64,000 bases of DNA from an uncultured Thermoplasmatales archaeon. Lineage in GTDB: Archaea; Thermoplasmatota; E2; DHVEG-1. The notes under the pieces were generated by a model. The model was given only the letters and a program-made list of their open reading frames with translations, searched no databases and was not told where the DNA came from. A program made the translations under genes and the position numbers. Of this stretch, positions 4,788 through 50,311 are shown one piece after another (the first letter of the stretch is position 1; every line of letters begins with the position of its first letter). Where the stretch lies: positions 16,915 through 80,914 of the forward strand of contig CAYMOC010000002.1 of NCBI GenBank assembly GCA_964391965.1, written 5' to 3'.

Positions 4788-5138
4788 ATGTTAACAATTG
4801 ACTGGGGGTTTTATGTTTTGGTAAATGAAGAAAAAAACAAATCAAGTATTACAAGTGTGGCAGAAAAAGAAATAAATCTATTAAACAGACATGTAGATGT
4901 ATTAAAAACAGTAAAAGAACACGGACCCATAGGAATAATACGACTATCAAAAATGACAGGGCAACCACAACATACAATTCGATATTCACTAAGAACACTT
5001 GAAAAAGATGGAATAATCGAGCCGTCACCAAATGGAGCAATGGTCACAGACAAAGCAGAAGATACACTTGATACAATTGAAACAACAATAGATGAATTTA
5101 CAACAACCATGAAAGGAATAAAAGATAAACTCAAATAA
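4788..5138 (+). CDS. winged-helix transcriptional regulator (possible start at TTG 4818)
   Basis: An HTH-like segment (LSKMTGQPQHTIRYSLRTLEKDGII) resembles TrmB/MarR-type wHTH. Confidence 0.4.
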   Translation: MLTIDWGFYVLVNEEKNKSSITSVAEKEINLLNRHVDVLKTVKEHGPIGIIRLSKMTGQPQHTIRYSLRTLEKDGIIEPSPNGAMVTDKAEDTLDTIETTIDEFTTTMKGIKDKLK

Positions 5139-5269
5139 AGAAATATTTATATTATTTTTATATAAAATAGCGTAATTTCCTGTTTTTGGTAATTAATGTT
5201 AAACAACTTTTATAAACTAGTTATGTGTATAATAAGGAGTAGAGAACAAAAAAAGATAAAAAAATCGGA

Positions 5270-6382
5270 GTGAAAATTAAGATGAAGAAATTTAAGATCA
5301 TAACAATGACATTAGGACTTATGCTACTATTCACACTAGGATCAGTTGCTAGCTCAGAAGACGTTAATGTAACTATAAATGATCCGAAAGCAGATGTAAT
5401 GGACTTCTATAAAGCTCTACAAGGAATTTATAGTGGCGGTGATTACAACGAAGATATTGATATAAAAACAATATCCTATGAAAAATCAGAAGGAAGCACT
5501 AAATTATCTTTTGATTTAGAAGTATTCGGTAAAATACTAGACAGTGGAGATGTAAGCGCACTTACCGGAGAAATGGACCCGGATATGGAGGAAACAGATC
5601 CTTTATCAATGATATCAAAATTAAAAGATCCTATAGTTTATTATGCAATATCATTCCAAAGCTCAGAAGAAATTTACACATTCAATTATATTAATACTAA
5701 TTGTTCAGTGACAATTGCTGAAGAAACAATCTGGGATTTAGACTATGAAATAAACAATGGCGTTCTTTCATCATCATTTAATCTCAAAAACGAAGATGAA
5801 ACGATAGAAAACATTACAGTAGAAACAACGTATATGAAAATTGACATAGATTTATCATCCTTATCAGATCCTTCAAATGCTGAAAATATAGATGAATCAT
5901 CTATGATTAACTGGTACTCTGATAGCTATCCAAATATGGAAGGTTTCTTTGCATCATTTTATACTGAACCGACAAATCCACAACCAGATGAGGAAACAGA
6001 GATAACTGCTAGTATATATGGCGGAACTGAACCGTACTCATATAAATGGGATTTTGGAGACGGCAGTGAATCAACAGGTTGGTTAGATGATCCAGGCACA
6101 ACTCATATATTTGAAGAAAAAGGAACATACACTGTTAACTTAACAGTAGAAGATAATGAAGGCAATTTAAGTTATGCAGAACTACCTGTTTTTGTTGGAA
6201 CAGAAAATTTAGATGATGTAAATCAAACCGGTGATACAAACAGCAGTAGAAATAAAAATAATAACGATGGTTTTCTTGCTGCTGCAACAAGTGGTAACAC
6301 GGGTCTGATAGCATTTATTGCCCTTGTAGCAATAATATTAGTAGCAGGTCTTGCAGTACTCTACTATATTAGCAAAAGATAA
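5270..6382 (+). CDS. secreted surface protein with PKD domain and C-terminal TM anchor
   Basis: It has a signal peptide, a PKD-like motif (YKWDFGDGSESTGW) and a C-terminal hydrophobic helix followed by KR. Confidence 0.55.
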   Translation: MKIKMKKFKIITMTLGLMLLFTLGSVASSEDVNVTINDPKADVMDFYKALQGIYSGGDYNEDIDIKTISYEKSEGSTKLSFDLEVFGKILDSGDVSALTGEMDPDMEETDPLSMISKLKDPIVYYAISFQSSEEIYTFNYINTNCSVTIAEETIWDLDYEINNGVLSSSFNLKNEDETIENITVETTYMKIDIDLSSLSDPSNAENIDESSMINWYSDSYPNMEGFFASFYTEPTNPQPDEETEITASIYGGTEPYSYKWDFGDGSESTGWLDDPGTTHIFEEKGTYTVNLTVEDNEGNLSYAELPVFVGTENLDDVNQTGDTNSSRNKNNNDGFLAAATSGNTGLIAFIALVAIILVAGLAVLYYISKR

Positions 6383-6480
6383 AAAAAATACATATTTTTT
6401 TTCTTTTTTTATTTTACTCTTTTTTAGTTATGTTTTTATTTAAAGAATATATCATGTTTCTTAATTAGTGAGGAACATTT

Positions 6481-7836
6481 ATGGCTAAAAAAGAAAATAA
6501 GAAAAGCGAATACACTTATAAAAGAAATTTTGCATGGGATGTTTTTTCAAAAAAACAGATTGAGGATGTTTTTAGTTTTTGTGAAGAATATAAAGATTTT
6601 TTAAACAATTCTAAAACTGAACGAGAAAGTATTAAAGAAATTAAAAAAATTGTAGAGAAAGCAAAAAAGAAAATCATTCTAAACCGTGAATCTGAAGCAG
6701 CAATTTTTATCAATGGAAATAAAAAAGTTGAGGATGGTTTAAGAATTATTATTTCTCATGTGGATAGTCCTCGTTTGGATTTAAAACAGGTTCCATTGTT
6801 TGAAGATGGTGATAGTAATCTTGCACTTTTTGAAACACATTATTATGGAGGTATAAAAAAATTTCATTGGGTTACAATTCCTCTTGCTTTGCATGGAGTA
6901 ATTATTAAAAAAGATGGAGAAAAACTTTATTTTAATCTTGGTGAGGATGAAAAAGATCCTGTTTTTTCTGTACCTGATTTGTTACCTCATCTTTCTTATG
7001 AAGTACAGAATGAGAAAAAAATGTCTAAAGCAATCAAGGGTGAAAGTCTTGACATTATGGTTGGGAATCAACCTGTTAAGGATGAAGAAGTTAAAAACCG
7101 GATTAAAGCAAATATTCTTGAAAAACTTCATGAGAAATATGGACTTATCGAAGAGGATTTTATATCAGCAGAGTTAGAAGCAGTGCCAATTTATAAAAGC
7201 CGGGATGTGGGTTTTGATCGTTCAATGATTGGTTCCTATGGCCAGGATGACCGTGTTTGTGCTTTTACAGCTATGAAAGCAGCACTTGATGCTAAAAACA
7301 AGTACAGTTGTATTGTTTTATTTGTAGATAAAGAAGAAATAGGAAGTGAAGGTAACGCTACAGCACAGGTATCAAATTTTATAAGGTCAGTTATTAAAAA
7401 ACTTGATAAAAATGTTGATGTAGATGAGGTTATGCTTAAAAGCAAAGTTATTTCTGCTGATGTTAATGCCGCTGTTACACCAAATTATACTGAGGTTTTT
7501 GAGTTGAAAAACGCTTCATCCTTAGGTAACGGTGTTGTAATGTCTAAGTTTACAGGTCATGGTGGTAAGTATGCTGCTAATGATGCCACAGCTGAGTTTG
7601 TCTCAGAGATTAGAACACTGTTAAATGAGAATAAGATTCCTTGGCAGACTGCTGAACTGGGAAAAGTAGACAAAGGCGGCGGTGGAACTGTTGCTAAATA
7701 CTTTAGTCGCCTTGGTATGGATGTAATAGATTTGGGTCCTGCGGTTATGAGTATGCATGCACCATTTGAAATTACTAGTAAAGTCGATGTTTATTCAGCA
7801 TATTTAGCCTATAAAAAATTCTTAGAAGCAACATAA
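6481..7836 (+). CDS. M18-family (aspartyl/ApeA-like) aminopeptidase
   Basis: It has the HVDSP motif, DDR and a C-terminal MHAPFE-type metal-ligand region. Length is about 450 aa. Confidence 0.6.
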   Translation: MAKKENKKSEYTYKRNFAWDVFSKKQIEDVFSFCEEYKDFLNNSKTERESIKEIKKIVEKAKKKIILNRESEAAIFINGNKKVEDGLRIIISHVDSPRLDLKQVPLFEDGDSNLALFETHYYGGIKKFHWVTIPLALHGVIIKKDGEKLYFNLGEDEKDPVFSVPDLLPHLSYEVQNEKKMSKAIKGESLDIMVGNQPVKDEEVKNRIKANILEKLHEKYGLIEEDFISAELEAVPIYKSRDVGFDRSMIGSYGQDDRVCAFTAMKAALDAKNKYSCIVLFVDKEEIGSEGNATAQVSNFIRSVIKKLDKNVDVDEVMLKSKVISADVNAAVTPNYTEVFELKNASSLGNGVVMSKFTGHGGKYAANDATAEFVSEIRTLLNENKIPWQTAELGKVDKGGGGTVAKYFSRLGMDVIDLGPAVMSMHAPFEITSKVDVYSAYLAYKKFLEAT

Positions 7837-7862
7837 AAAAAATCTATTTTTTTTTTATTTTT
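7837..7862. terminator. T-rich bidirectional terminator between convergent genes
   Basis: An oligo-T/A tract (tattttttttttatttttt) lies between the stop codons of convergent genes. Confidence 0.3.
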
Positions 7863-9483
7863 TACTAAGACGATCAATTATATGATTACGACAATACTCA
7901 GGATTACATTTTTTATCTGTTTTTCTCGCCACTGGTAAACCCGCGAGTCGCATCATAGGCCGGGTTGCTTTTTTTCCATGTTTCCAACGAGCATAAAACC
8001 AATGTACAAAGAAAAACATAGGACCAAGTACCTTTTGCATCTGCGGCGCCCAGAAATCAATATTATTACGCCAGCAACGAGAAAGTACCTCCCATTGAAG
8101 CTCTGTAAGATTATCAAGATTTGTTCGATGTGAATCACTAAGAAGTGCTTCACGAAGTGGAATAAAAAGAACAGGAGTGTAAAACATTTTAGAATTTTGA
8201 GCTCGCAGTTCATCTATCAACTCAAGTGTTGCCAATACATCATCCTCTGTTTCATCAGGCTGACCGGTCATAATAGTACACAATGGATACCAATCATGAT
8301 CATTTAGATGCCCTATTGCTTCAACTACAAGCTCAGGCCAATTATCAACACTGAAAGGCAATGCTTTTCCTTTCATATATTTCTGCATCAAACGAACACT
8401 ACCTGTTTCAATACCCATCTCAACAGAAATAAATGGTTTTTTGTAAAGTTCACTAGTCTTAGGAGTCCATTTAGTTTTCTCTATCAATATCGGTGTAAGT
8501 TCCTCAAGAAGTGTTTTATCGTACAAAATCGGTGCAAAAGAACCATGTGAAAGAAGAATATGTTCAACACCAGGATAATCCGCAATTGTCTTGTAAAGTT
8601 TTACAACCTCAGGTGTATTTGGAACAAAATTTTTTTTACATTTATAAAGAAAAATATCCTCAGTTACAGTAAAAATAGATTTAGAACCTTCTTTTATATT
8701 GGTTTTAACTTCTTTCATTATATGATCAATTGGAAAACTATGCCTGTTACGCATAGTAGGGCTACAAAAAGCACAACCACGTCCACAACCACGCATAATC
8801 TCAACCATTCCATAACTAGAAGCATGTTTAATCGTTGGAATGAAATCTCTTTTAGGATGAGCCGCCTCATAAAAAGCAGGAAATTTTTCACTGTTTAACA
8901 ATTTTTTGAAAACAGGTACAACTTCTTCCTCCCCTTCACCCTGAAAAATATGATCAATACCAAGCTTTTCTTGCATATTTGCTTCAGCAATCTGCCAGGC
9001 ACCCTGGCCGCCAACAATAACCTTTGGATCATATTTTTTAATAGAAGGATGCTTCAACAATTTCACAAACTCTGAAGCATTCAATGCTTCTCCACCAAAA
9101 CCAATCAAACTATTATAAGTAGTAGAAACATAAGCAAGACCCATAGGATCCATAGTTGAAATACCAACAACTTTTGTTTTTCGTCCTACAAAACGATGAA
9201 TTTGATCATAATGAGTGCAAACCACATTTTCTTCACCGAACTCATCAATAAGCATCGATTCAACCTTACGTAACCCATAAATAGTTTGTTTAGCAGAACC
9301 ATCAGAATTGCATTCAAGATTGTTTAAATGTTCACGAAGAGCATAACCCGAAAGTTTTTTTGGAAAAGTACAAATAAACGCGGCAAAAGGATTGTTATCA
9401 TACTCATTAGCTTCAGCTCTAGAAGCAGCTAAAACAATCGGTACACCTTCAACATCTGTATCCAACTCTAAATTATTGCTCAT
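7855..9483 (-). CDS. radical SAM protein with N-terminal B12-binding-like domain and long C-terminal extension (542 aa)
   Basis: CGRGCAFCS is a CxxxCxxC motif. An N-terminal Rossmann-like region (VVGISTMDP…KVIVGGQGA) is present. Confidence 0.6.
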   Translation of the reverse strand: MSNNLELDTDVEGVPIVLAASRAEANEYDNNPFAAFICTFPKKLSGYALREHLNNLECNSDGSAKQTIYGLRKVESMLIDEFGEENVVCTHYDQIHRFVGRKTKVVGISTMDPMGLAYVSTTYNSLIGFGGEALNASEFVKLLKHPSIKKYDPKVIVGGQGAWQIAEANMQEKLGIDHIFQGEGEEEVVPVFKKLLNSEKFPAFYEAAHPKRDFIPTIKHASSYGMVEIMRGCGRGCAFCSPTMRNRHSFPIDHIMKEVKTNIKEGSKSIFTVTEDIFLYKCKKNFVPNTPEVVKLYKTIADYPGVEHILLSHGSFAPILYDKTLLEELTPILIEKTKWTPKTSELYKKPFISVEMGIETGSVRLMQKYMKGKALPFSVDNWPELVVEAIGHLNDHDWYPLCTIMTGQPDETEDDVLATLELIDELRAQNSKMFYTPVLFIPLREALLSDSHRTNLDNLTELQWEVLSRCWRNNIDFWAPQMQKVLGPMFFFVHWFYARWKHGKKATRPMMRLAGLPVARKTDKKCNPEYCRNHIIDRLSKK

Positions 9484-9504
9484 AACAGAAACCTACAAAG
9501 AATT

Positions 9505-9828
9505 TTATGTTTTTTTAACAAGCATTTTTTTAAACAAAGGATCCTTAAGAGTCTCCTGAAGTTGACCTAGAAAATCATTCCATGAAAGACTATTATTAGA
9601 CCATTTAATCATTTCTTTTTTATGAAGTGAAAAAATTTTAAGAAAACTCTGCCAACTATAACCATCATCTTTTAATGGTTTAGACCAACCAGCATCACGC
9701 CAAAGATAACTAGGAAGCTTGTTTCCAAACCATAAAGTAAAAGAATCTATTTTAAGTTCCAAGTTTTTTTTCTGATTCATAAAATGTTTTTTTAATTTTT
9801 TAGGTTCAGGTGGAATATGATAATTCAT
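9505..9828 (-). CDS. hypothetical protein, probably co-transcribed with downstream radical SAM gene
   Basis: A 21-bp gap separates it from the next gene on the same strand. It is Trp-rich and I recognised no family. Confidence 0.3.
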   Translation of the reverse strand: MNYHIPPEPKKLKKHFMNQKKNLELKIDSFTLWFGNKLPSYLWRDAGWSKPLKDDGYSWQSFLKIFSLHKKEMIKWSNNSLSWNDFLGQLQETLKDPLFKKMLVKKT

Positions 9829-10026: not shown

Positions 10027-11019
10027 GTGGAAGAGCTGAAAAAAATTATAACCATTAAGGATAAACTATTTGCTCATTTAGAAACTTGGAGGATTTATAC
10101 TATTATATGGTGTGGTCTTGTAAGTCTTACAGGTTCATGCATATCTCATGAAGGTTTTCCACCATTAATAATTGCTTTTTTTGTAACAATTACACCGATG
10201 ATGGGATGGGCGGCAGCTCTATATCTATCAGATTTTTTAGACAGAAAACTTGATGCTATAGAAAAACCCCATAGGCCTATCCCTTCTGGAAGAATCAGCC
10301 CCAAAGAAGCAATAATTGTAGGCGGAATCTTTGTGATAACAGGGCTGATTATTTCATATATCTTAGGAATCTATAACTTTATTTTAGTGTTTATAGTAGC
10401 TATACTAGTTTATTCATATACAAAGATTTCAAAATCAAAAGGTTTAATGGGCAATCTGAACCGTGGAGTTGTAATAGTCGCAGCATATTTTTATGGAGTT
10501 TTTTCAGCAAATATACATATTGAATTATTGCCAGTATATATCTGGATATTACCACTTGTATTTCTCTTTCACGACACTAACAGCAATTTAGTTGGAGCCA
10601 TTCGAGATATGAAAGGCGACAAAAAAGGAGGATATCAAACTATACCAGTCAAGTATGGCCTGGAAAAATCTGTTTATATTTCATTAATTTTAACATTTAT
10701 ATGGCATGGTATACTATTATTTTTACAATATAACTATAAATTTTTAGAACCAGTTTTTTATGTTTTTTTGTTAATCGATATTTTTATTATAGTTTCATTA
10801 TATGGTTATATGTTTAGATCTATCAAAGACTACACTCGAAAAAAAGCTTTAAATTTTCATCGTTTTTTTGTGATAGAAAGAATAATACTTGCATCTAGCA
10901 TCATATTAGGAATAATTGAAATTAACTTAGGAGTAATTATTCTGATTTTATCCTTGATAACAACTATTACATCTCAACATTATTTAAGAAGTAGATATGA
11001 GTTTGTTGATAAAAAATGA
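10027..11019 (+). CDS. UbiA-family prenyltransferase (DGGGP-synthase-like)
   Basis: It has Asp-rich motifs DFLDRKLD (DxxDxxxD), RPIPSG and DMKGDKKGG. There are about 8 TM helices. The start codon is GTG. Confidence 0.65.
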   Translation: MEELKKIITIKDKLFAHLETWRIYTIIWCGLVSLTGSCISHEGFPPLIIAFFVTITPMMGWAAALYLSDFLDRKLDAIEKPHRPIPSGRISPKEAIIVGGIFVITGLIISYILGIYNFILVFIVAILVYSYTKISKSKGLMGNLNRGVVIVAAYFYGVFSANIHIELLPVYIWILPLVFLFHDTNSNLVGAIRDMKGDKKGGYQTIPVKYGLEKSVYISLILTFIWHGILLFLQYNYKFLEPVFYVFLLIDIFIIVSLYGYMFRSIKDYTRKKALNFHRFFVIERIILASSIILGIIEINLGVIILILSLITTITSQHYLRSRYEFVDKK

Positions 11020-12011
11020 AATATGCAGTTATTGGCTTAGGTGCCGTTGGGAGTATCATTGCTGGTTTACTTTCAAAAAACAATGAAAATGTTATCTTAA
11101 TTGGTAAAAAAACACAAATCGAGCAGATTAAAAAAAATGGATTAAAAATCTCAACAAATCAATCTGAGACAATAATAGAAAATCTTAACTTATCATCAAA
11201 GTTTGCTTCTGTAGAGAAAGTTGATATACTTTTTGTATGTGTAAAATCACAGGATACTAAAAAATTATTTTTAGAACTAAAAGAGTTTCTAAAAGAAGAA
11301 ACGGTTATTGTTTCATTACAAAATGGTGTTAGAAACGCTGAAATAATAAATAAAATTGTTAAAAATAAGGTACTTTCATCAGTAGTTTTATTCAATGCCG
11401 TATACAAAAAACCAGGAAACGTCGACTTGTCAATCAGGGGAGGAATTCTATTAGAAGATGATAAAAAATATTCAAAAATAATAGATGAATTATTCAAAAA
11501 CACGGATGTAAAAATAACTCTTGTCGAAAACATAAAAAGTTACCAATGGAGTAAACTTATCCTAAATCTGCAAATAGCTGTAACTGCACTTACTGGTCAA
11601 ACAATAAAAGAATCAATTATAAATAAGGATTCGAGGAAAATTTTAGCTGAAACAATGTCTGAAGGAGTAAAAATTGTTGACAAATCAGGTGTTAAACTTG
11701 AAAAACTGCCGGGTCTTGATCCAAAAAAAATGATTAAACGGCTTAATATGCTTAATTCAATATTTTTAAGAATAGGAAGTAAATTTCTTGGTGTTTCAAA
11801 GAATGCTAGAAATTCAATGTGGCAGAGTCTTGCAAGAAATAAAAAAACTGAAATAGATTTTATAAATGGTGAAATTGTAAAACTTGCAGAGAGAAATAAT
11901 TTAGAAGCACCTATAAATGAAAAACTTGTAAAATATGTAAAACAGGCCGAAAAAAAAGACAGTGTTGGTAACATCAAACCCAAGAAGTTGAGAAAAATAT
12001 TAGATTTTTAA
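11016..12011 (+). CDS. ketopantoate reductase (ApbA/PanE) family NAD(P)H oxidoreductase
   Basis: The N-terminus MKYAVIGLGAVGSIIAGLL is a Rossmann fold. Its start overlaps the UbiA stop (ATGA), giving translational coupling. Confidence 0.6.
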   Translation: MKYAVIGLGAVGSIIAGLLSKNNENVILIGKKTQIEQIKKNGLKISTNQSETIIENLNLSSKFASVEKVDILFVCVKSQDTKKLFLELKEFLKEETVIVSLQNGVRNAEIINKIVKNKVLSSVVLFNAVYKKPGNVDLSIRGGILLEDDKKYSKIIDELFKNTDVKITLVENIKSYQWSKLILNLQIAVTALTGQTIKESIINKDSRKILAETMSEGVKIVDKSGVKLEKLPGLDPKKMIKRLNMLNSIFLRIGSKFLGVSKNARNSMWQSLARNKKTEIDFINGEIVKLAERNNLEAPINEKLVKYVKQAEKKDSVGNIKPKKLRKILDF

Positions 12012-12064: not shown

Positions 12065-12913
12065 ATGAAAAGAAATTCAAATAAACAAATTCAAGAGCAA
12101 TGGGCAAAATATTGGGATAACGTCTGGGTTCAGAAAGACGACTCAAAAAAACTTAAATCAATTAATAAAAAAGAGCAAATTTATTTTTCTTTAGCAGGCA
12201 TTATCAACTCATATATTAAAAATTATATTAAAAATGATAAAGAATACAGAATAATTGAGATTGGTTGCGGTGGTTCTTCAATATTTCCAATTTTGATGAA
12301 GAGCTTTAAAAATCTAAAAATCGCAGGTATTGATAGGTCTCTTCTTGGATGTAATTTCGTATTTGAAGGAAATGAATATAGAAATGGATCTGTTGATGTC
12401 ATCTGTGGTGATGCATTACAAATTCCAATAAAAAATAATTCTTTCGATATCTCTTATAGTATTGGCCTTGTTGAACATTTTGAAAATCAATATGAAATTA
12501 TCAAAAGCCATGTAGATCTTTTAAAAAAGGAGGGGTTAGTTGTAATAGTGATACCAAATCTAACTGGTTTTCAAAAAAAACTATTAAGATCTGAGCTTTT
12601 TAAATCCAAAACAGCATTGAACAATCAAAATTGGATTAATGGAATGAAAATAACGACAACTAATGATTTAAAAAAAATATTAAAAAAGCTAGATTGTAAA
12701 AAAATCGAAATCATACCCGCAGGAGGGTTACATCCGCTTTTAATGTTGGAATCATATTATTCAGAGAAATACTCTGAAGCAAATAAATTTTCAGATACTA
12801 TTTATAAAATCTTTTTATCAGGACTGTTTATAATAATTAATATTCCCTTTATATTTAGATTAAACATGATGAATTTATCACCTTTCATTGTAGCCACTGC
12901 AATAAAAAAATAA
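12065..12913 (+). CDS. class I SAM-dependent methyltransferase
   Basis: Motif I is IIEIGCGGSS. An acidic loop and a motif II-like region (VICGDALQIP) follow. Confidence 0.6.
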   Translation: MKRNSNKQIQEQWAKYWDNVWVQKDDSKKLKSINKKEQIYFSLAGIINSYIKNYIKNDKEYRIIEIGCGGSSIFPILMKSFKNLKIAGIDRSLLGCNFVFEGNEYRNGSVDVICGDALQIPIKNNSFDISYSIGLVEHFENQYEIIKSHVDLLKKEGLVVIVIPNLTGFQKKLLRSELFKSKTALNNQNWINGMKITTTNDLKKILKKLDCKKIEIIPAGGLHPLLMLESYYSEKYSEANKFSDTIYKIFLSGLFIIINIPFIFRLNMMNLSPFIVATAIKK

Positions 12914-12940: not shown

Positions 12941-13594
12941 ATGAGTAGTAAAATAGTTATAAATTTTTTTTCTTTTATCAAAAAAATTTTGTTTTCTGAA
13001 TTTCCTGATAAATTCAAACCCGGGAGTTTAAAAAATGTTGTAGATCTGATGTTCAGAGTTTTTGAAAAAACAGCTCATAATTTTGATTTTATAACAAATG
13101 CATATTTGAATGCATATGAAGTTATGATTGAAAAAGAGTTAAAACTAACAGAGGTATCAAAGGATGATTCTGTTTTAATCATTGGATGTGGTTCTCTGCC
13201 TTCTACATCTATTGTTATTGCTGAAAAAACTAATGCTAAAAATGTTAGTATGGATATAGATAAATCTGCAGTTGAAGCAGCTAGAAAAATATTAAAGAAA
13301 ATGAATCTTTTAGATAAAGTAAAAGTAAGACTTGTTGAAGATATAAATTATCCAATAGATGATTTTGATTTAATCTTTATTTTATATGGTGTTAAGAAAC
13401 AGGAAAAAATTTTTAGACATATTTTTGAAAATGCAAAATCAGATGTTAAAGTTATAATTAGATCATATTCAGATGATTTTAAGAATGTTTTTGATTTTAA
13501 AAATTTTAAAGTTTTAGATCATTTTATAATTGTTAAAAAAGTTAGATCTGATGTTTTTGGACCTGTTTTTTCTTTTCTTTTAGAAAAAAAATAA
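12941..13594 (+). CDS. SAM-binding Rossmann-fold enzyme, nicotianamine-synthase-like glycine loop (or methyltransferase)
   Basis: VLIIGCGSLPSTSIVIAEK resembles the NAS motif (F/V)(I/V)GSGPLPLTSI(V/L). The protein is 217 aa. Confidence 0.4.
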   Translation: MSSKIVINFFSFIKKILFSEFPDKFKPGSLKNVVDLMFRVFEKTAHNFDFITNAYLNAYEVMIEKELKLTEVSKDDSVLIIGCGSLPSTSIVIAEKTNAKNVSMDIDKSAVEAARKILKKMNLLDKVKVRLVEDINYPIDDFDLIFILYGVKKQEKIFRHIFENAKSDVKVIIRSYSDDFKNVFDFKNFKVLDHFIIVKKVRSDVFGPVFSFLLEKK

Positions 13595-13601
13595 GTTTGT
13601 T

Positions 13602-14978
13602 TTATTTTTTTATTTTAGAAACTATTACTTTTATTTGATCTGAACGTGCATCTTTTTGTATATGATCTGTTTCTGTTACTCTGACTTTAACACTTTTTCC
13701 TATTTTTTGTTGAAATCTTTTTTGAAGTTCATTAATTAATTCTTTAACACTTACTCCTTGGTTTCTTTGTTTTTCATCTATTACGATTAATATTTCAACG
13801 TCATCAAGATCATGTTGCACTATTTGGAATTGTTTTATTTTATAAGAGTTAAAAAATTCCATTGTTTTTGCAGGGATACCAGTTACACTCAATGGAGAAA
13901 GTGTTTTTCCATTTGGAAGATAAATTAATTCTGATGTTCGGCCTTCGATGTGTTTTATTAATTTTGAAGTTATTCCACAACTTGTTTTTTTATCAATAGG
14001 TACAACTATGTCATCTATACCTGTATATCTTATTATTGGGGTTCCTTTCCCGTATAGTTTTGTTATTACTGTATGACCTGGTTTGTTTAAAGGAACGGGT
14101 TTATTGTTATCATCAAGTATTTCCATGTAGACATAGTCTGAGTGGATGTGGAAAAAGTTGCCTTCAACACATTCGAAACCTATTGGTCCTCCTTCTGTTG
14201 TTCCATAAATGTCAAAAACGCGTGTGTTGAATGCCTTTTCTACATATTTTTTTGTGTACTCATCAAGTGTTGAACCTCCAGAGCCTATGAATTTTGGTTG
14301 AATGTTTTTTCCTTGCCCATTGTGTTTTAAATATGCTAGTTGTCTAAGCATGTTAGGATCAGTAGCTAAAAACTCTGGTTGGAAAACATTTAGTTCTTTG
14401 ATTATTTTTTCTGGTTTTTCACCTAAATGCAGATATTTTACATGATCCATTGATATGAATTTTTTTGCGAAAGGCATTAGACTTTCTGAGAAAAAAGCGT
14501 TTTCTGCACTACCTGGTTCTACATCTATTATCAGACATGATTTTGTAGTTCTCCAGTTTCCACCATATGCTTTTAAAACTCTTATAAAAGCAAGCAGGCT
14601 TTTGATTGCAGCAAAACGGTCGATATAAATAAAAACTGGTTTACCAGTAGAGCCACTAGTAGATATTGTAAAACCGTCTTTTGTTTTAAAATTATAAGGT
14701 TTAATGTTTACAGGATAGTTATTTCTTAAATCATCTTTTGTGATGAAAGGAAGTTTACCGATATCATTTATTCCATGTATATCATCGGGATGAACTCCAG
14801 CTTTTTTGTATTTATCATGATACATTGGCACAGTGTATGCATATTTCACAATTTTTCTAAGTTGTTTATCCTGATATCGTCTAAGTTTTTCTTTGTCAAA
14901 ACTCCATGGTCTATTGATATCAGAAAGATAATTTTTGCCTAGATTATATAGAAATTTAGGATCGATAAAGAAACTCAT
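13602..14978 (-). CDS. PaaK/coenzyme F390 synthetase-like adenylate-forming enzyme
   Basis: It has the AMP-binding P-loop TSGSTGKP and an N-terminal region typical of COG1541. Confidence 0.65.
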   Translation of the reverse strand: MSFFIDPKFLYNLGKNYLSDINRPWSFDKEKLRRYQDKQLRKIVKYAYTVPMYHDKYKKAGVHPDDIHGINDIGKLPFITKDDLRNNYPVNIKPYNFKTKDGFTISTSGSTGKPVFIYIDRFAAIKSLLAFIRVLKAYGGNWRTTKSCLIIDVEPGSAENAFFSESLMPFAKKFISMDHVKYLHLGEKPEKIIKELNVFQPEFLATDPNMLRQLAYLKHNGQGKNIQPKFIGSGGSTLDEYTKKYVEKAFNTRVFDIYGTTEGGPIGFECVEGNFFHIHSDYVYMEILDDNNKPVPLNKPGHTVITKLYGKGTPIIRYTGIDDIVVPIDKKTSCGITSKLIKHIEGRTSELIYLPNGKTLSPLSVTGIPAKTMEFFNSYKIKQFQIVQHDLDDVEILIVIDEKQRNQGVSVKELINELQKRFQQKIGKSVKVRVTETDHIQKDARSDQIKVIVSKIKK

Positions 14979-15098
14979 TTTTCAAATATTTCCTCTTTTT
15001 TTGCTCTACATGTATTATTAACACAAGATATTTAACTTTTAATAATAGAACTATATTATTTGATTTAAAGGGAGGCGTCTTAACTGAGCGTGTTTTCT

Positions 15099-16412
15099 AT
15101 GATTCGTGGATTTTTAGCTTTAAAAATTCATGAAAGAAACTCTAGAGAAAAAATACTTAAAATTCAAGAAAAAAAATTCCGTAAAATTTTAAAATTTGCC
15201 TATAACAATTCTAAATTTTATCATAATCTGTATAAATCAAAAGGTATTTCAGAGGAGGAATTGGATAATATACCTGTTGAAAAAATACCTGTGGTAGATA
15301 AAGAAACATTAATGGAAAATTTTGATGATGTGGTAACAGTAGATGATGTTTCCAAAAAAGAGGTTCTGAGTTTTTTAAATGAAAGTAAACATCCTAATGA
15401 TCTTTTAAAAAACAAATATCATGTTATTCATTCATCAGGTTCCTCTGGTAAATTAGGTTTGTTTCTTTACAGCAAAAAAGAATGGGACAGCATTTACCCA
15501 TATATTACAAAAGCTTATGATTTCAATTTCAGAAAAAACCGTTCTGTTTTTATAGGTGCAACAGGAGGACATTTCGCAGGAGCCAGCTTTAGTAGTTGGG
15601 GTGGAAAAGGAATACCTGGTTTATTTAATGAACCACTTATACTTAATGTAAATGAACCAATAGATCAGATAATAAAAAAACTAAATAATTTTAAACCAAC
15701 AATTTTAGGTGGTTATTTTAATGCTTTAAAAATTCTTGCTCAGAAAAAAGAAAATGGTTTACTCAAAATTAATCCTAAAATATTAGTAAACTGTGGGGAA
15801 GGACTAAACCTTAAAGACAAAGAATTTATTGAGAATGTTTTCGATGCACCTATGTCAAATTTGTATAGTTTTGCTGAATGTATTGTTTTAGGATTTGGAA
15901 AGGATGAATATGAAGGCATATACCTTTTTGATGATTTAGCAAAAATTGAATTTAAAAAAGATTATATAATTGTTACAAACCTGTATAATAAAACAGAGCC
16001 GATAATTAGATACAGAATTGATGACTATATTTCATTAAAAAAAGATAAAAAAAACAAGTATCCCTTTACACTAGTAAATGAAATAATTGGAAGAGCAGAG
16101 TTTATAATTTGGTTTAAAAATGAAGAAGGAAACAAAGATTTTATTCATCCTTTGATTTTTACAGATTTTTTTGTTAAAGGATTAGATAAACATCAAATAA
16201 TTATAACCGGTGAATCTTCATTTATTTTTAAAGCAGTTATTAAATCTGATGAAAAAAAGAGAGTTTTAAAGGAAATAGATAAAAAATTAGAAAAAATTTT
16301 ATTAGATAAAAAATTTTCAAATGTCAAATACCAAATCAAAGAAGTTGATGAAATTCCTGTTAACCCAAAAACAGGTAAATATAAACTAGTAATAGATAAG
16401 AAAAAAAATTGA
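15099..16412 (+). CDS. PaaK-like adenylate-forming enzyme paralogue with degenerate P-loop
   Basis: Its architecture matches 13602-14978, but the P-loop is HSSGSSGKLG. The ATG at 15099 is preferred over the GTG at 15090. Confidence 0.5.
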   Translation: MIRGFLALKIHERNSREKILKIQEKKFRKILKFAYNNSKFYHNLYKSKGISEEELDNIPVEKIPVVDKETLMENFDDVVTVDDVSKKEVLSFLNESKHPNDLLKNKYHVIHSSGSSGKLGLFLYSKKEWDSIYPYITKAYDFNFRKNRSVFIGATGGHFAGASFSSWGGKGIPGLFNEPLILNVNEPIDQIIKKLNNFKPTILGGYFNALKILAQKKENGLLKINPKILVNCGEGLNLKDKEFIENVFDAPMSNLYSFAECIVLGFGKDEYEGIYLFDDLAKIEFKKDYIIVTNLYNKTEPIIRYRIDDYISLKKDKKNKYPFTLVNEIIGRAEFIIWFKNEEGNKDFIHPLIFTDFFVKGLDKHQIIITGESSFIFKAVIKSDEKKRVLKEIDKKLEKILLDKKFSNVKYQIKEVDEIPVNPKTGKYKLVIDKKKN

Positions 16413-16416
16413 TGTT

Positions 16417-17814
16417 TTAATCATCTCTTATAAAAAACATTCTAAGTCCTGCTTTAATAAAACGGAAATCCCATTTTTTAAAAGCTCTAAAAATTTGTCG
16501 AAAAAGATATTTAGGATTAAAATAAAATTTTTTATGAGCATATAAACAGTAATCATTTAGCTCCTCTTTTGACAGTTTACTTAATCCTCTGTTTGAGTCT
16601 GCATCCACAATATATTCATCTGATCTGACTTTGCCATTTTTCACAGCTTCATCCCACATCTCGGAACCGCGGTAATAACCAAGAGTTAAAAAATGTGCGA
16701 TATCCAATGGAATACTTCTAGCAAAACGAATTGTATCCTCAATATCTTCTTTTGTTTCCATTGGTGCACCAAAAATAAAACTACCAGAGGTTATGAAACC
16801 CATTTTGTGGCTAAGATGTACTGCATTACGAATTTGATCAGGAGTTGTTCTTTTATTATAAAAATCTAAAACTTTCTGATTAGCTGATTCGATACCAAAA
16901 GAAATAAATTTTACACCGGCATCCTTCATTTTTTTATAAATTACTGGATCTGCTGAATCTACTCTAGCAGCCATAACCCAGAAATTTAGATTAAAATTAT
17001 TCTCGATTACTTTATCCATTATTTTTCCGACACGTTTCTTATTTGCAAGAAAATTATTATCAACAATTATAACAGTTTCAAAACCATCTTTTACAATCTT
17101 ACGAAGCTCTTTGATGACATTTTCAACAGATCTCTCACGATAACATGGATCTATTGCATTATAACCACAGAATCTGCAATTATATGGACAACCCCGTGTT
17201 GTGATTATAGAAGTTGTTTTACCATCGGTCATTTTTTGACCTAAGATATAACCATAGTCATATTTTTCAACAAGATGGCGAGCTGGAAAAACGATCTTAT
17301 CTAAATCTTTTATAACATCTAAATCCGCGGTTTTTTTAATCAAACCTTTTTTATCACAATAACAAATCCCTTTAATCGCTGATAGGTCTTTTTTACCGTT
17401 CAAGGCATCAACAATATCAAGTATGTTTTGCTCCCCTTCCCATTTAACACAAATATCTGAATCAAAATCCATAAGAGCATCTTCTGGATCTAACGCACAA
17501 TGAGGGCCACCAATTAAAAAAGGTTTATTTTTTTCAATGTTTCTAATAAATTTTGCTAATTCTTTTGATTGCTCAAAAGAACTTGTACAAATAGTTAGAC
17601 CTATAACATCTGACCATGAAATCAATGATTTAAGTTTTTCACGTTCAACATTTTCAGCAGTTAAATCTAATACTTCAATACTGTGACCGTCTTTTTCTAG
17701 AATTGCTGAAAGATATAATATTCCCAGAGGTGGAGAATAAGGATTAACCGGTAAGGTTTTTTTATCTGCGATTCTAAATCCTCTACCTGGAGGGAAAATA
17801 AACAAAAAATTCAT
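16417..17814 (-). CDS. B12-binding radical SAM protein
   Basis: It has an N-terminal cobalamin-binding-like domain and the motif RGCPYNCRFCG (CxxxCxxC). Confidence 0.7.
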   Translation of the reverse strand: MNFLFIFPPGRGFRIADKKTLPVNPYSPPLGILYLSAILEKDGHSIEVLDLTAENVEREKLKSLISWSDVIGLTICTSSFEQSKELAKFIRNIEKNKPFLIGGPHCALDPEDALMDFDSDICVKWEGEQNILDIVDALNGKKDLSAIKGICYCDKKGLIKKTADLDVIKDLDKIVFPARHLVEKYDYGYILGQKMTDGKTTSIITTRGCPYNCRFCGYNAIDPCYRERSVENVIKELRKIVKDGFETVIIVDNNFLANKKRVGKIMDKVIENNFNLNFWVMAARVDSADPVIYKKMKDAGVKFISFGIESANQKVLDFYNKRTTPDQIRNAVHLSHKMGFITSGSFIFGAPMETKEDIEDTIRFARSIPLDIAHFLTLGYYRGSEMWDEAVKNGKVRSDEYIVDADSNRGLSKLSKEELNDYCLYAHKKFYFNPKYLFRQIFRAFKKWDFRFIKAGLRMFFIRDD

Positions 17815-17828
17815 TTTTAGATCCTTTT

Positions 17829-19157
17829 TTAAATATTAAAATCATTTTTGTAATATCTTCTAAATGTAACATTAGTCCCCATAGGAAGTAATGCTCCCAT
17901 TCTCCTAACTGTTGTTAAAATCCTTGTGTTTCTTTTTATGATATTCTTCCACGAGTAAAATTCTTTAGCGACTTTTTTACTCCCGTTTAATAATTCTTCA
18001 ACGGTCATATTTTTGGGTTCAAAAACAACATCAACCTGATTATATTTACTCCAATCTTTAGTAAAAATACGTCCTTCTCTATCAAGCCTATCAAATAAAG
18101 GCGTACCTGGATACGGCGTTAAAATATTTATTTCAAGAACATCTATTTCAAGTTCATTTATTTTTTCAAGAGTTGCATCAAAAACATCAGGTGTGTCTTC
18201 ATCAAAACCAAATATTATCCCCCCTTGAATTGACATCCCGTAATCATGAACACGATCTATCATTTTACTAAAATCTTCAACCTTATTATGTGTTTTTTTT
18301 ATACCATTAAGAGCAGCCTGACTAACTGATTCAAAACCTACAAACCATTCAACACAACCAGATTCTCTAGCCAGCTGTAAAAATTCATCATCAGCTTTTA
18401 ACAAAACATTAGTTGTACCATTAGACACCCAACTTTTATTTATCTTATTTTTAATCATTTCCTTGAAAAGTTTTTTAGCATATTTTGGATTCGCAGTTAA
18501 ATGAGGATCATGAATTGTAAAGAGTCGGTTAGGCATTTCTTTCATTTCATTTATTACATTTTGTATAGGTCTTTGTTTAATACCATGCTCGCAGAAACTA
18601 GCAATTGCACAAAACTCACACCTGTTGGGACAACCACGTGTTGTCTGAACAGCACCCATAATAGGATTATGTCTGATAAGATCTCTTCTTATAGGAGGTA
18701 TGTCCTCGGGTTTATAGTTTGTATCTTTTTCATAAATTTTTTTAAGTTTTCCTTTCTCAAAATCAGCAAGAAGCTTAGGCCAGTTCGATTCAGCCATACC
18801 TAAAATAATACTATCAGCATGTTTCAAAGCCTCTTCAGGCACAGCAGTTGGATGATAACCTCCAAGAACTACTTTTTTACCCCTTTTTCTAAACTCATCA
18901 GCTATTTCATAGACACGTGGAGCTGTCATAGTATAACAAGTAATACCTATAAGATCTGCATCAGTATCAAAATCAAGGGAATCATAGTTCTCATTAACGA
19001 TTTCTACATCATATTTTTTAGGAGTGATTGCTGCAACATGGGGCAAAGTAATTATTGGATAACCAAAAAGAATAGAAGCCCATGAGCTTTTATCATTTAC
19101 AGTAGTTGCACCATGTTCAATCCTTGGAAACACAAGAAGTACTTTAATAAAGTTCAA
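17829..19157 (-). CDS. B12-binding radical SAM protein (DUF4070-like C-terminus)
   Basis: The radical SAM motif is RGCPNRCEFCA. It is a clear paralogue of 22762-24045. Confidence 0.7.
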   Translation of the reverse strand: MNFIKVLLVFPRIEHGATTVNDKSSWASILFGYPIITLPHVAAITPKKYDVEIVNENYDSLDFDTDADLIGITCYTMTAPRVYEIADEFRKRGKKVVLGGYHPTAVPEEALKHADSIILGMAESNWPKLLADFEKGKLKKIYEKDTNYKPEDIPPIRRDLIRHNPIMGAVQTTRGCPNRCEFCAIASFCEHGIKQRPIQNVINEMKEMPNRLFTIHDPHLTANPKYAKKLFKEMIKNKINKSWVSNGTTNVLLKADDEFLQLARESGCVEWFVGFESVSQAALNGIKKTHNKVEDFSKMIDRVHDYGMSIQGGIIFGFDEDTPDVFDATLEKINELEIDVLEINILTPYPGTPLFDRLDREGRIFTKDWSKYNQVDVVFEPKNMTVEELLNGSKKVAKEFYSWKNIIKRNTRILTTVRRMGALLPMGTNVTFRRYYKNDFNI

Positions 19158-19270: not shown

Positions 19271-20587
19271 TCAAAAAAGTTTATCAAAATCCGAGATGAA
19301 ATAATCGGATTTATTTATTTCAACAGACTTAAAATCTATTTTAATTTTTGGATAGAGTTGAAATTTTGTTTTAATTTTTTTATTTAGACCATGTGAATTT
19401 AAAACTAAATTTAAACCAAAACCTTCAGGTGGTTTTAAAAAATCTAAGCTTATAGAACTATGATTTGTGTTAAATAATTGTCTTTGAGGTTCAAATTTAC
19501 AAAACCCTTCTAAATCTATTCTTCTATCGCCATTTGAATAAAAACCTTTTACAGTTCCAGGTTGTTCATAAACTATATATGCATTCTTATTGTCAGATAA
19601 TTTAAATAGAAAACCATATGGGTCAGTTTTTTTCTTAAAATTTATTTTGAATTTTTCTTTATCATCCTGAAAGATTAAACTTATTTCAGTGGGGTAATAA
19701 ATATCATGATCTTCTGAATATTCAATTTTTTTATATTCAAAACATCCATTAAAAAATTCTTTATATTTGCATCCATCCTTAGATAAAATAATTGTGCCTA
19801 TAACAGGGCCTTTTAATATCCATCCTAAAATATTACCATAAAAAAGAGTCCAACCATTATCAAAAACTGCCCATGCCCAATCATAACCAAGAGGGTTATT
19901 GTCTTTACTAAAAGCTAAGGAATTTGGGATTCTTGGTTTTTTGCATTGCAACCATTTACCCATTAGTTTAGCATAAGTTGAAAGACTTTTTTTAATATTT
20001 CTTGAATATGTAAACCAGTTTGTATATGAAAAATCTCCCCATACATGTTCATAATATCCAGAGCCGTTTACTGAAAAATTATTTTGATTTATGTTTAACA
20101 AACCTGAGATTTTACATTTTGGGATAAAACCATACCTGTAAAAACCTAAACCCATTGGAAGCCAGCCGTTAGTTGTTCCTTGGGATACCCAATGTGGTAG
20201 TGCTTCTGATTTATATGTTAAATTGGTTTGTATATTGTTTTTTTTATCATTCAAAAAAATTTTATAATCTGGGAATAAACCTTCGATGTATGAATCTTTG
20301 TAATTTATTTTTTGAGTTTTGTGATCTGCATATATTTTCAGTTTTTTTCGCTGATTTTCAGAATAATAACTATAATGTTTATTTTCATCTAAGTCGAAAA
20401 GAGTTATAAAAAAATTTGAGCCGTATTCTTTTGATTTTTTGAACCATTCGCCAAAGGAGGCTTTTAAATTCCATTTTTTTTTATTATCATTTTGTTTTAA
20501 AAAAGCTTCGAAACACCACCACTCTATTGCACTTTTTTCATGTTCTTTTTCATCAGAACAGCTCCAAGGATTTTTATTATCAACCAT
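19271..20587 (-). CDS. CrtC/AttH-like (carotenoid 1,2-hydratase/lipocalin-like) protein, tentative
   Basis: HEKSAIEWWCFEAFL resembles the H..EWWY.TGhL N-terminal motif of the CrtC/AttH family. The protein is Trp/Tyr-rich and beta-rich. The internal ATG at 20587 avoids overlap with the divergent gene. Confidence 0.35.
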   Translation of the reverse strand: MVDNKNPWSCSDEKEHEKSAIEWWCFEAFLKQNDNKKKWNLKASFGEWFKKSKEYGSNFFITLFDLDENKHYSYYSENQRKKLKIYADHKTQKINYKDSYIEGLFPDYKIFLNDKKNNIQTNLTYKSEALPHWVSQGTTNGWLPMGLGFYRYGFIPKCKISGLLNINQNNFSVNGSGYYEHVWGDFSYTNWFTYSRNIKKSLSTYAKLMGKWLQCKKPRIPNSLAFSKDNNPLGYDWAWAVFDNGWTLFYGNILGWILKGPVIGTIILSKDGCKYKEFFNGCFEYKKIEYSEDHDIYYPTEISLIFQDDKEKFKINFKKKTDPYGFLFKLSDNKNAYIVYEQPGTVKGFYSNGDRRIDLEGFCKFEPQRQLFNTNHSSISLDFLKPPEGFGLNLVLNSHGLNKKIKTKFQLYPKIKIDFKSVEINKSDYFISDFDKLF

Positions 20588-20682
20588 AGACAAAAATTGT
20601 ATTAAATAGATTATATAAATATGTTTATCATACATATAAAAAAGTTTTTTTATAGGATAAAACATATAAAAAATGGTTTTCT

Positions 20683-21699
20683 TTGCAGATGAAAAAAACA
20701 AAAGTTGACATAATAGGCGGGGGAATATCAGGATTAGCCGCAGCCATAGCAATAAAAAAACTTAACAAAAAAATAGATGTAAATATCTATGAAAAACACA
20801 AAAAAATAGGATACAACCCAGAAGGAAGAAGATGTGGAGAAGCCCATTCAATAGAAGGAAAATGGAAAAAATGGAAACCAAACAAAAAAAGCATATTCAA
20901 TGAAATATACAAAGTCGAAACAATAGTCGGGAAAAAAACTTATACACTAAAAAGAAAAAAAGGAACATCCTGCATATTAAACAGACAAGAATTCATATCA
21001 AATTTAGGAAAAAAAGCAGAAAAACTTGGAGCATACATACAAACAGATAACAAAATAAAAACAATAAAAGAATTAGATGCAAAATACATAATCGATGCAT
21101 CAGGATGCCCTAGCTTTGTAAAAAAAGAATTAAAAATTAACCATGGAATAACAGGAAAAACATATCAACAAACAATAGAAAACTCAAATTTTTTCATAAA
21201 AGACACCGTTAAAATATTTATAACAGAAAAAACAGGCTATTATTGGATTTTTCCAAGAAATCCCGATAAAAAAGAAATTAATCTAGGTGTAGGCATTGTC
21301 GGAAAAAAACAAGCTAACTTAAAAAAAATATTAAATGAATTTAAAGAAAAATACAAAGTCACAGGAGAAATTAATTACAAAACAGGAGGGTTGATACCGG
21401 TCGGGCTGCAGAGGCCGCTTAAACATGAAAATATACTATTTGTTGGGGATACAGGAGTCGGCACTTTTCCGTATACTGGAGAGGGAATATACCGTGCTCT
21501 ATTAAGTGGAGATATCGCAGCGGATTGCATCGTCAAAAAACAAATAAGAAGATATCCTCATGAAATAAATCAAAATTTTATCAAATGGGATCTTATTGGA
21601 AAAAATGTAATAAGGATAAGCTCAGTATTAGAAAGTATAAGCCCAAAAGCTGTTGTTTCAATGCATCAAAAATATCTCAATTTTTTTATTAGCAATTGA
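20683..21699 (+). CDS. geranylgeranyl reductase-family FAD-dependent oxidoreductase (short, 338 aa)
   Basis: It has the FAD-binding motif DIIGGGISGLAAA and the GGR-family motif FVGDTGVGTFPYTGEGIYRALLSG. Confidence 0.55.
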   Translation: MQMKKTKVDIIGGGISGLAAAIAIKKLNKKIDVNIYEKHKKIGYNPEGRRCGEAHSIEGKWKKWKPNKKSIFNEIYKVETIVGKKTYTLKRKKGTSCILNRQEFISNLGKKAEKLGAYIQTDNKIKTIKELDAKYIIDASGCPSFVKKELKINHGITGKTYQQTIENSNFFIKDTVKIFITEKTGYYWIFPRNPDKKEINLGVGIVGKKQANLKKILNEFKEKYKVTGEINYKTGGLIPVGLQRPLKHENILFVGDTGVGTFPYTGEGIYRALLSGDIAADCIVKKQIRRYPHEINQNFIKWDLIGKNVIRISSVLESISPKAVVSMHQKYLNFFISN

Positions 21700-24045: not shown

Positions 24046-24289
24046 CTTTTAACACATCTAACAAATTTTTTTTATAAATTTTTTATATACAATTCTTATA
24101 TTTGTAGTTTTACCAACAAAACCCTGTTAATAAACTAAATTTTAGCGTAAATACACTCTATACTGGTTTAGTTTACTAAATAGGTTTTATTTAAAATTTT
24201 TTGATAGATCTATCCAAAAGAAAAAATTGATATCAACAGTAGTTTTTAATATTTCATGTTTTATTTTCCAATACTGGCGAATTGATATT

Positions 24290-32420: not shown

Positions 32421-32436
32421 TTTAAAACAAAAAAAA

Positions 32437-50223: not shown

Positions 50224-50311
50224 TTTTATACAAGAGATTGTGTAATGTGCCAAAGATTTATAATGGAATCGTTGATTCACTGGCTTTAACAAAAAATACA
50301 AGAGTTTTTTA

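Follow-up and report, generated by a model that had tools for sequence, protein, structure and literature searches.

A UbiA-superfamily prenyltransferase coupled to a ketopantoate-reductase-family enzyme in a Thermoplasmatota archaeon: a candidate module for isoprenoid 2-hydroxy acids

The window analysed here, i.e., the whole 64-kb stretch of archaeal DNA, raises the question of why a membrane prenyltransferase of the UbiA superfamily is encoded directly before, and in overlap with, a reductase of the ketopantoate reductase (KPR; ApbA/PanE) family. The original prediction, made from the letters of the window, had described this pair with its ATGA overlap and an altered Asp-rich motif, had called the pairing unusual, and had proposed that it marks synthesis or reduction of the prenyl acceptor, as in a hydroxy-acid or quinol-type head group. 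Both genes, the overlap and the motif are indeed present, as follows.

10027–11019, plus strand: UbiA-superfamily prenyltransferase of 330 residues with a GTG start (Pfam UbiA, E = 1.6e-35), of a PlaT3/AtoD-like clade without the motif Asn.
11016–12011, plus strand: KPR-family NAD(P)H 2-oxo-acid reductase of 331 residues with an ATG start (ApbA and ApbA_C domains).
11016–11019, plus strand: ATGA start/stop overlap in the geometry of translational coupling, kept in 78 of 96 related loci with either type of reductase.
10228–10254, plus strand: first Asp-rich motif of UbiA, S68-D-F-L-D-R-K-L-D76, with Ser replacing the canonical Asn, from homologue alignments.
10570–10620, plus strand: clade signature and second Asp motif of UbiA, H182-D-T-N-S-N-L-V-G-A-I-R-D194-M-K-G-D198, invariant or nearly so in two alignments and confined to members of the family.

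The answer that we tentatively prefer is that UbiA and the reductase form a co-translated synthase–reductase module for an isoprenoid acid, in which a polyprenyl 2-oxo acid would be made first and then reduced to the 2-hydroxy acid. By its sequence relationships, such a module would best be filed as an archaeal, reductase-coupled variant of the PlaT3/AtoD-type prenyl-keto-acid system of bacteria; its acceptor, step order and product we infer by analogy with that system.

The first evidence lies in the overlap itself. The reductase ATG overlaps the UbiA TGA, and this start is credible because a GxGxxG motif stands at residues 7–12 of the protein, as in other KPRs. Loci with a close UbiA homologue were compared from genomes (34) and metagenomes (80), some of which are duplicates (90 distinct UbiA proteins among 99), and 101 of these carry enough downstream sequence to identify the next gene. 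This gene encodes a PanE-like reductase in 32 loci, an extended short-chain dehydrogenase/reductase (SDR) of 315 residues in 64, and directly a nicotianamine synthase (NAS)-like protein in five. The 4-nt overlap with UbiA is retained in 31 of the 32 PanE-like loci and 47 of the 64 SDR loci, with UbiA identities of 45–92%. Given this recurrence, the overlap is more than chance, and the pairing can be taken as real, conserved and functional. The word "unusual" still holds among characterised systems, but not within this archaeal order, where 95% of the loci have a reductase in the slot.

The identity of the gene in this slot is more informative than the overlap alone. The best matches of the SDR are OleD, a 2-alkyl-3-oxoalkanoate reductase (1.6e-37), and HpnA (2.4e-32). 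PanE-like and SDR genes were never found in one locus (0 of 96), and the loci of the two types interleave on the UbiA tree, and therefore the swap must have happened repeatedly. The sequences thus indicate a non-orthologous displacement, in which NAD(P)H-dependent keto reduction tied to UbiA would be the conserved element. The PanE-like subfamily, at identities of at least 46%, is entirely archaeal and UbiA-linked where checked; bacterial proteins reach at most 38%, and the nearest bacterial relative checked (P0239) is not linked to UbiA. A bacterial ApbA protein that does lie near a UbiA of the clade (locus L122) was considered and set aside, being 25% identical to the window reductase and an independent association at best. 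The most divergent archaeal member of the PanE-like subfamily is found in locus L130, where polyprenyl synthase, UbiA and PanE-like genes (5033–8008) stand alone on a 310-kb archaeal contig and are followed by threonyl-tRNA synthetase. The same order of the three genes occurs in L031 and L100. In the L130 synthase, Ala and Ser at positions −5 and −4 before DDxxD may point to a product longer than C20.

The UbiA protein itself was then placed by its motifs, by model scores and by phylogeny. The first Asp-rich motif is S68-D69-x-x-D72-x-x-x-D76, i.e., SDxxDxxxD as first described, and among the 120 closest homologues the Ser position holds S in 97, A in 15, T in 2, Q in 2, I in 1, and never N. 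Archaeal members have Ser or Ala here, and Gly prevails in bacteria and in the wider clade. The family motif [G/S/A/C/T/M]D(Y/F)xDRxLD, without Asn, occurs in 43 of 44 representatives with both motifs, together with an HDxxxNLVGxxRDxxGD signature, whereas 53 of the 64 motif-bearing matches without this second signature, mostly canonical and similar to digeranylgeranylglyceryl phosphate (DGGGP) synthase (DGGGPS), have Asn, the other 11 having clade-type residues. The Ser of the window UbiA is therefore the marker of a distinct clade and not a quirk of one sequence. In a profile search over 1.84 billion representative proteins, 66 were found at E < 1e-30 with scores from 485 down to about 120 bits, below which lies a plateau of roughly 280-residue proteins (about 110–90 bits) with the canonical NDxxDxxxD. 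No NCBIfam equivalog was reached, the best being PRK12884 (121 bits vs. a cut-off of 269), and the DGGGPS models were missed by a wide gap (NF009521, 96 vs. 296 bits; NF009522, 87 vs. 353; NF009512, 35 vs. 278). A neighbour-joining tree of 119 sequences with 60 bootstraps separated the family from the canonical NDxxD group in 55 of 60 replicates. The DGGGPS of M. jannaschii (PDB 6m31) falls in the NDxxD group, outside the family clade; this enzyme is 35–42% identical to the plateau proteins and 31% identical over 212 residues to the window UbiA. The closest solved relatives of the window UbiA are DGGGPS (3e-20) and chlorophyll synthase (3e-15). An identity as DGGGP synthase is rejected on the motif, the model scores and the tree, and on these sequence criteria the window UbiA belongs to a separate clade, so that the comparison with DGGGPS proposed originally comes out against that assignment.

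In three related loci a second NAS-like gene is paired with a UbiA paralogue (L019, 6459–8194; L020, 6456–8193; L010, 12890–13456 and 15034–16056). This paralogue has the canonical NDxxDxxxD and falls in the canonical group of the tree, and may or may not be a DGGGPS.

The two domains of the reductase match ApbA (PF02558, 2.4e-33) and ApbA_C (PF08546, 3.5e-23), and the family-level model TIGR00745 is passed (203 vs. 141 bits), but no KPR equivalog is, the best being NF006083 (259 vs. 371 bits). The GxGxxG motif, N103, K180, N184, S267 and E279 are invariant over 25–26 sequences. By alignment to KPR structures, K180, E279, N103 and S267 presumably correspond to K176, E256, N98 and S244 of E. 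coli KPR. For the AlphaFold model (pLDDT 92.7), the 50 best fold matches in the PDB are all KPRs or D-mandelate dehydrogenases, a family in which bulky 2-oxo acids are known to be accepted as substrates. Before the substrate-binding Ser, an additional helical hairpin (about residues 231–264) was modelled at lower confidence, which is common to PRK08229-type proteins and might contribute to the binding of a hydrophobic substrate.

The simplest explanation of the locus would be a housekeeping one, in which UbiA is the DGGGP synthase of the organism, the reductase is the KPR for coenzyme A, and the two are adjacent without sharing a pathway. Homologues are annotated by JGI as DGGGPS and 2-dehydropantoate 2-reductase, the TIGR00745 model is passed, and the window contains genes for geranylgeranylglyceryl phosphate synthase (GGGPS) and geranylgeranyl reductase (GGR), with no other UbiA in its 64 kb. 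However, the UbiA, which has no motif Asn, was placed apart from the DGGGPS group, its bacterial clade members described below lie in secondary-metabolite operons, the nearest bacterial PanE-like relative checked has no link to UbiA, and an unrelated SDR can take the place of the reductase while keeping the overlap. In addition, neither panB nor panC was found among the window ORFs scanned. The missed equivalog, the lack of panB and panC in the scanned ORFs and the SDR in 64 of 101 loci together indicate that the reductase is not a bona fide KPR of the pantothenate pathway. The housekeeping explanation is contradicted by this evidence and is regarded as highly improbable.

A second use of the reductase was considered on account of a weak match to NAD_Gly3P_dh_N (3e-9). 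A GpsA-like enzyme could make a backbone of the glycerol-phosphate or butanetriol-phosphate type from a keto-phosphate and supply it to UbiA, which would link the locus to butanetriol tetraethers, for which Thermoplasmatota are known in the literature as producers. However, the C-terminal domain and catalytic residues are of KPR type and not GpsA type, an OleD-like SDR would be an unlikely substitute, and the literature describes butanetriol tetraethers as glycerol dialkyl glycerol tetraethers (GDGTs) with a methyl added to the glycerol backbone. No support was found for the butanetriol-tetraether or GpsA-like link, and this barely credible explanation, too, is contradicted by the evidence.

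The chemistry of the preferred synthase–reductase module is suggested by the bacterial members of the UbiA clade. In L123/L124 (P0256) the genes follow the order aminotransferase, polyprenyl synthase, UbiA, class II cyclase (like squalene–hopene cyclase) and squalene-epoxidase-like monooxygenase, which is the atoB–F order of the atolypene cluster. Polyprenyl synthase, cyclase and UbiA are found in L120 (P0243) and L122 (P0250); a polyprenyl synthase, extra methylerythritol phosphate (MEP)-pathway genes and a cytochrome P450 accompany UbiA in L039 (P0400) and L038 (P0401), the former also with a class II cyclase and an epoxidase. All five proteins lie inside the clade of the window UbiA, and the grouping of the archaeal clade with P0243 was recovered in 60 of 60 bootstraps. 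The context of P0246 (tricarboxylic acid cycle genes) is uninformative, the contigs of P0249 and P0241 are too short to use, and a metagenome scan with a broad alignment returned only close archaeal relatives and no new bacterial contexts.

In the phenalinolactone pathway, PlaT3 is reported to act first on geranylgeranyl diphosphate (GGPP) and to add a C3 α-keto acid; PlaT3 and the synthase alone yielded C23 keto, hydroxy and amino products, with the functional groups made by host enzymes, and the D67A mutant of PlaT3 was inactive (PMC11317874). For AtoD, the addition of three carbons to geranylfarnesyl diphosphate (GFPP), possibly from phosphoenolpyruvate (PEP), was proposed, and the aminotransferase AtoB was shown in vitro to convert the prenylated product back and forth between amine and ketone, while host dehydrogenases gave the hydroxyl form (PMC11600129).

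A further association with keto acids is seen in Actinomycetes (Actinomadura, Amycolatopsis, Actinocrinis, Pseudonocardiaceae), where clade members of about 820–890 residues have UbiA fused to HMGL-like and HCS_D2 domains. The fused part resembles isopropylmalate synthase (IPMS), homocitrate synthase and citramalate synthase, the substrates of which are 2-oxo acids, and examples from Amycolatopsis and Actinomadura lie in terpenoid clusters (L038, 10001–12472; L039, 5486–8053). No description of UbiA/IPMS-like fusions was found in the literature. The 140-residue linker of the fusion has no Pfam match, and an SCP2-like lipid-carrier domain that had been considered for it received no support from Pfam. 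The clade is thus accompanied by a KPR-family reductase (32 loci), an OleD/HpnA-like SDR (64 loci), an aminotransferase (L123/L124) or a fused IPMS-like domain (Actinomycetes), and therefore every recurrent partner is a keto-acid enzyme.

By analogy, the following pathway is proposed for the archaeal module. UbiA would ionise a polyprenyl diphosphate, either GGPP from the cell pool or, in some relatives, the product of a dedicated polyprenyl synthase, and would join the prenyl C1 to a C3 unit derived from PEP or pyruvate, giving a polyprenyl 2-oxo acid ("prenyl-pyruvate"). The co-translated KPR-family enzyme would reduce the 2-oxo group with NAD(P)H to the 2-hydroxy acid. Neighbouring enzymes, i.e., a NAS/CntL-like transferase, PaaK-like ligases, a GGR-like reductase, B12-binding radical S-adenosylmethionine (SAM) enzymes and a CrtC-like hydratase, would then saturate, methylate, activate or decorate the lipid acid. 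The hydroxy-acid moiety guessed at originally is consistent with this evidence, whereas nothing was found in favour of a quinol-type head group.

The reverse order of the two steps corresponds to the original prediction. The reductase would first make a 2-hydroxy acid, which UbiA would then O-prenylate to an ether, as DGGGPS does, or an ester, as chlorophyll synthase does. Both of these closest solved relatives are O-prenylating enzymes, the PanE, SDR and IPMS-like partners could all produce hydroxy acids, and even for PlaT3 it has not been proven which step comes first (PMC11317874). However, AtoB works on an already prenylated compound (PMC11600129), the keto, hydroxy and amino products of PlaT3 plus synthase already arise through host enzymes (PMC11317874), and the alternative SDR is similar to enzymes with lipidic substrates (OleD, HpnA and sterol 3-dehydrogenase). 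Supply of the acceptor by the reductase is thus considered unlikely. Rather than synthesis of the acceptor beforehand, the PlaT3, AtoD and AtoB precedent suggests that the substrate of the reductase is the prenylated keto acid, the 2-oxo group of which would be reduced once the prenyl chain has been transferred.

Several points weigh against the synthase–reductase module and keep it tentative. The acceptor of PlaT3 and AtoD has not been established in vitro, and an amino-acid acceptor was not excluded by the PlaT3 authors (PMC11317874). Membership in the PlaT3/AtoD type was assigned from the synteny of clade members and not by direct comparison with the PlaT3 and AtoD sequences, and all trees are neighbour-joining only. 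Homologues of the class II cyclase and flavin epoxidase were found in none of the archaeal loci nor in the window, so that a divergence of the chemistry in archaea is conceivable. No polyprenyl synthase gene adjoins UbiA in the window; one stands immediately upstream of UbiA in the archaeal relatives L030, L031, L034, L100, L101 and L130; among the window ORFs scanned, no polyprenyl synthase was found at all. Finally, a reductase is lacking both from the slot and from the rest of the fetched flanks in 5 of 101 loci.

The UbiA–reductase pair is the first part of a four-gene plus-strand operon, followed by a membrane-anchored methyltransferase and the NAS/CntL-like transferase.

12065–12913, plus strand: third operon gene, encoding a class I SAM methyltransferase that ends in a hydrophobic C-terminus (Methyltransf_11, 5e-12; weak BioC and UbiG matches).
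12941–13594, plus strand: NAS/CntL-like SAM-dependent transferase of 217 residues, a candidate aminobutyryl transferase (NCBIfam CntL, 1.5e-16; PDB CntL, 5e-9; thermonicotianamine synthase, 4e-5).

A homologue of the methyltransferase, located between the reductase and NAS-like genes, occurs only in the sublineage L001–L003; the neighbourhood in L004 and L005 instead includes a gene for a GT1 glycosyltransferase, sugar nucleotidyltransferase or sugar O-methyltransferase. The NAS/CntL-like protein is nearest to aminobutyryl transferases and to no methyltransferase, and its gene is the most conserved partner after the reductase, following it in 52 of 62 loci with enough sequence. This conservation would also be expected if the product were a lipo-opine, in which the reductase, acting like CntM, condenses a prenylated 2-oxo acid with an amine from the NAS/CntL-like transferase to give a membrane-anchored head similar to nicotianamine or staphylopine. 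In favour of such a role, CntM depends on a 2-oxo acid as co-substrate, and its fold, with two domains of the 6-phosphogluconate dehydrogenase type, is shared by KPR. However, the KPR catalytic set is intact, no opine dehydrogenase was found at E ≤ 0.001 by sequence or among the top 50 fold matches, in 63% of the loci the place of the reductase is taken by an extended SDR, and the minimal operon of L130 has no NAS-like gene. A lipo-opine is therefore regarded as very unlikely.

The operon is located inside an island of about 18 kb (about 7.8–25.7 kb) with four B12-binding radical SAM enzymes, three ligases similar to PaaK or F390 synthetase, a GGR-family protein, a sulfotransferase and a weakly matching CrtC/AttH-like protein. 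Its other members are as follows.

7855–9828, minus strand: divergently transcribed B12/radical SAM protein (7855–9483) and a protein of 107 residues, function not assigned (9505–9828), with conservation limited to L002 and L003, the closest relatives.
13602–14978, minus strand: PaaK/F390-synthetase-like adenylate-forming ligase; 39 of 46 loci have such a ligase at a distance of 6 kb or less.
15090–16412, plus strand: F390-synthetase-related adenylate-forming enzyme (TIGR02304, 3.3e-34).
16417–19157, minus strand: two B12-binding radical SAM enzymes (16417–17814 and 17829–19157); 37 of 46 loci have such an enzyme at a distance of 8 kb or less.
19271–20752, minus strand: CrtC/AttH-like putative isoprenoid hydratase, a weak match (Pfam CrtC N-terminal lipocalin domain, E = 0.0064, full-length).
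20683–21699, plus strand: GGR-family flavoprotein (GGR_cat, 5e-9; TIGR02032, 1e-35).
21736–22716, minus strand: sulfotransferase, from the window scan.
22762–24045, minus strand: B12-binding radical SAM enzyme, from the window scan.
24227–25687, plus strand: third PaaK-like ligase, from the window scan.

The B12-binding radical SAM enzyme at 17829–19157 with its CrtC/AttH-like neighbour recalls the tetraether desaturase Ted and the hydroxy-GDGT synthase Hgs (Garcia et al., bioRxiv 10.1101/2025.10.20.683597). Homologues of both proteins recur near UbiA in most related loci, the CrtC-like protein lying within 8 kb in 32 of 46. The ORFs of the CrtC-like and GGR-like proteins overlap by 70 nt at their 5′ ends. 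In the gene calls of L001, an identical contig, the CrtC-like product is shorter (464 residues) and the GGR-like start lies a few codons later, so that the upstream TTG starts are probably wrong. The GGR-like gene is one of three paralogues of its family in the window (20683–21699, 49039–50301 and 56095–57291). Relatives of the PaaK/F390-like enzymes come near to NCBIfam DVU_1553 (245 bits in L019 vs. a cut-off of 300), from a Desulfovibrio cluster without assigned function. Elsewhere in the window, GGGPS (32437–33198, minus strand) adjoins a UbiX/CoaC-type flavoprotein (31866–32498, minus strand). Window-wide RNA scans gave no tRNA or Rfam features, and a scan for sigma-70 promoters and terminators was uninformative for an AT-rich archaeon.

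Among the window genes, those for GGGPS/PcrB, NucS and a split GMP synthase are archaeal markers, and close homologues of both proteins of the pair come from metagenome-assembled genomes named Thermoplasmatales archaeon SG8-52 and from similar Thermoplasmatota. The host is an archaeal member of the Thermoplasmatota, of the MBG-D (Marine Benthic Group D)/Thermoprofundales kind. These are among the most abundant archaea of marine sediments. In a literature search that was not exhaustive, no description of the UbiA–reductase module in Archaea was found, and the Thermoprofundales genome papers held nothing relevant on UbiA, quinone, pantoate or lipid.

In routine annotation, archaeal UbiA proteins of the window type are named DGGGP synthase or 4-hydroxybenzoate prenyltransferase, and their neighbour is given a role in pantothenate synthesis. 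For an entire order of archaea that abound in sediments, neither name is likely to be right. If the proposed chemistry applies, the recently recognised bacterial reaction of a prenyl diphosphate with a C3 keto acid would extend to Archaea, its product would be given a reductase of its own, and isoprenoid 2-hydroxy acids would be predicted as a concrete lipid class to search for in MBG-D-rich sediments. The IPMS-like fusions and the exchange of two unrelated reductases also lend independent genomic support to the idea, as yet unproven, that 2-oxo acids are the products of this UbiA clade. A bolder proposal, which is on balance rather doubtful, is that Thermoprofundales make undescribed lipids in which an isoprenoid chain is C–C-joined to a lactate-like 2-hydroxy-acid head ("polyprenyl-lactates", C23 or longer), tailored by an aminobutyryl or methyl transferase, adenylating ligases, B12 radical SAM enzymes and a hydratase, the core enzyme having been exchanged horizontally with bacterial meroterpenoid pathways. 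Polyprenyl-lactates would then be new sediment biomarkers and represent a non-ether, non-glycerol branch of archaeal lipid chemistry.

Compared with known systems, the window pair resembles several in part. With DGGGPS of M. jannaschii (6m31), its best solved-structure match, the window UbiA shares the superfamily, a similar second Asp motif and GGPP as the likely donor, whereas its clade is a different one with Ser, Gly or Ala for the Asn and with other conserved gene partners, and the protein itself misses all equivalog cut-offs and has about 45 extra C-terminal residues. The reductase shares the two-domain fold (target-normalised TM-score up to 0.91), the Lys/Glu/Asn/Ser catalytic set and the conversion of a 2-oxo to a 2-hydroxy acid with KPRs (E. 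coli PanE; T. kodakarensis 5ayv/5hws; R. eutropha 3hwr) and D-mandelate dehydrogenase (3wfi), but is 17–28% identical to them, carries the extra hairpin, is interchangeable with an SDR and is never accompanied by pantothenate genes here. OleD and HpnA-like extended SDRs, which are lipid keto-acid reductases, are not homologous to the window reductase but are the best matches of its alternative in 63% of the loci, at 130 and 112 bits, far below the family cut-offs. As in CntL/CntM and thermonicotianamine synthase, a CntL/NAS-like gene lies beside an NADPH oxidoreductase of related fold with an implied 2-oxo acid substrate, although here the reductase is of KPR type, the NAS-like protein has 217 vs. 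about 280 residues, and transporter genes of the cnt kind are lacking. The closest parallel is to PlaT3 (phenalinolactone), AtoD (atolypene) and the Bra-type UbiA of perhydrophenanthrene meroterpenoids: the window UbiA shares its clade with UbiA proteins in the AtoD position of ato/pla-like operons, and this clade lacks the motif Asn, carries HDxxxNLVGxxRD and adjoins a keto-acid-modifying enzyme, with a polyprenyl synthase in some archaeal relatives. The archaeal version differs in its host, in having no class II cyclase or epoxidase, in its setting within an island for membrane-lipid modification, and in its partner, which is a translationally coupled ketoreductase, either KPR or SDR, instead of an aminotransferase.

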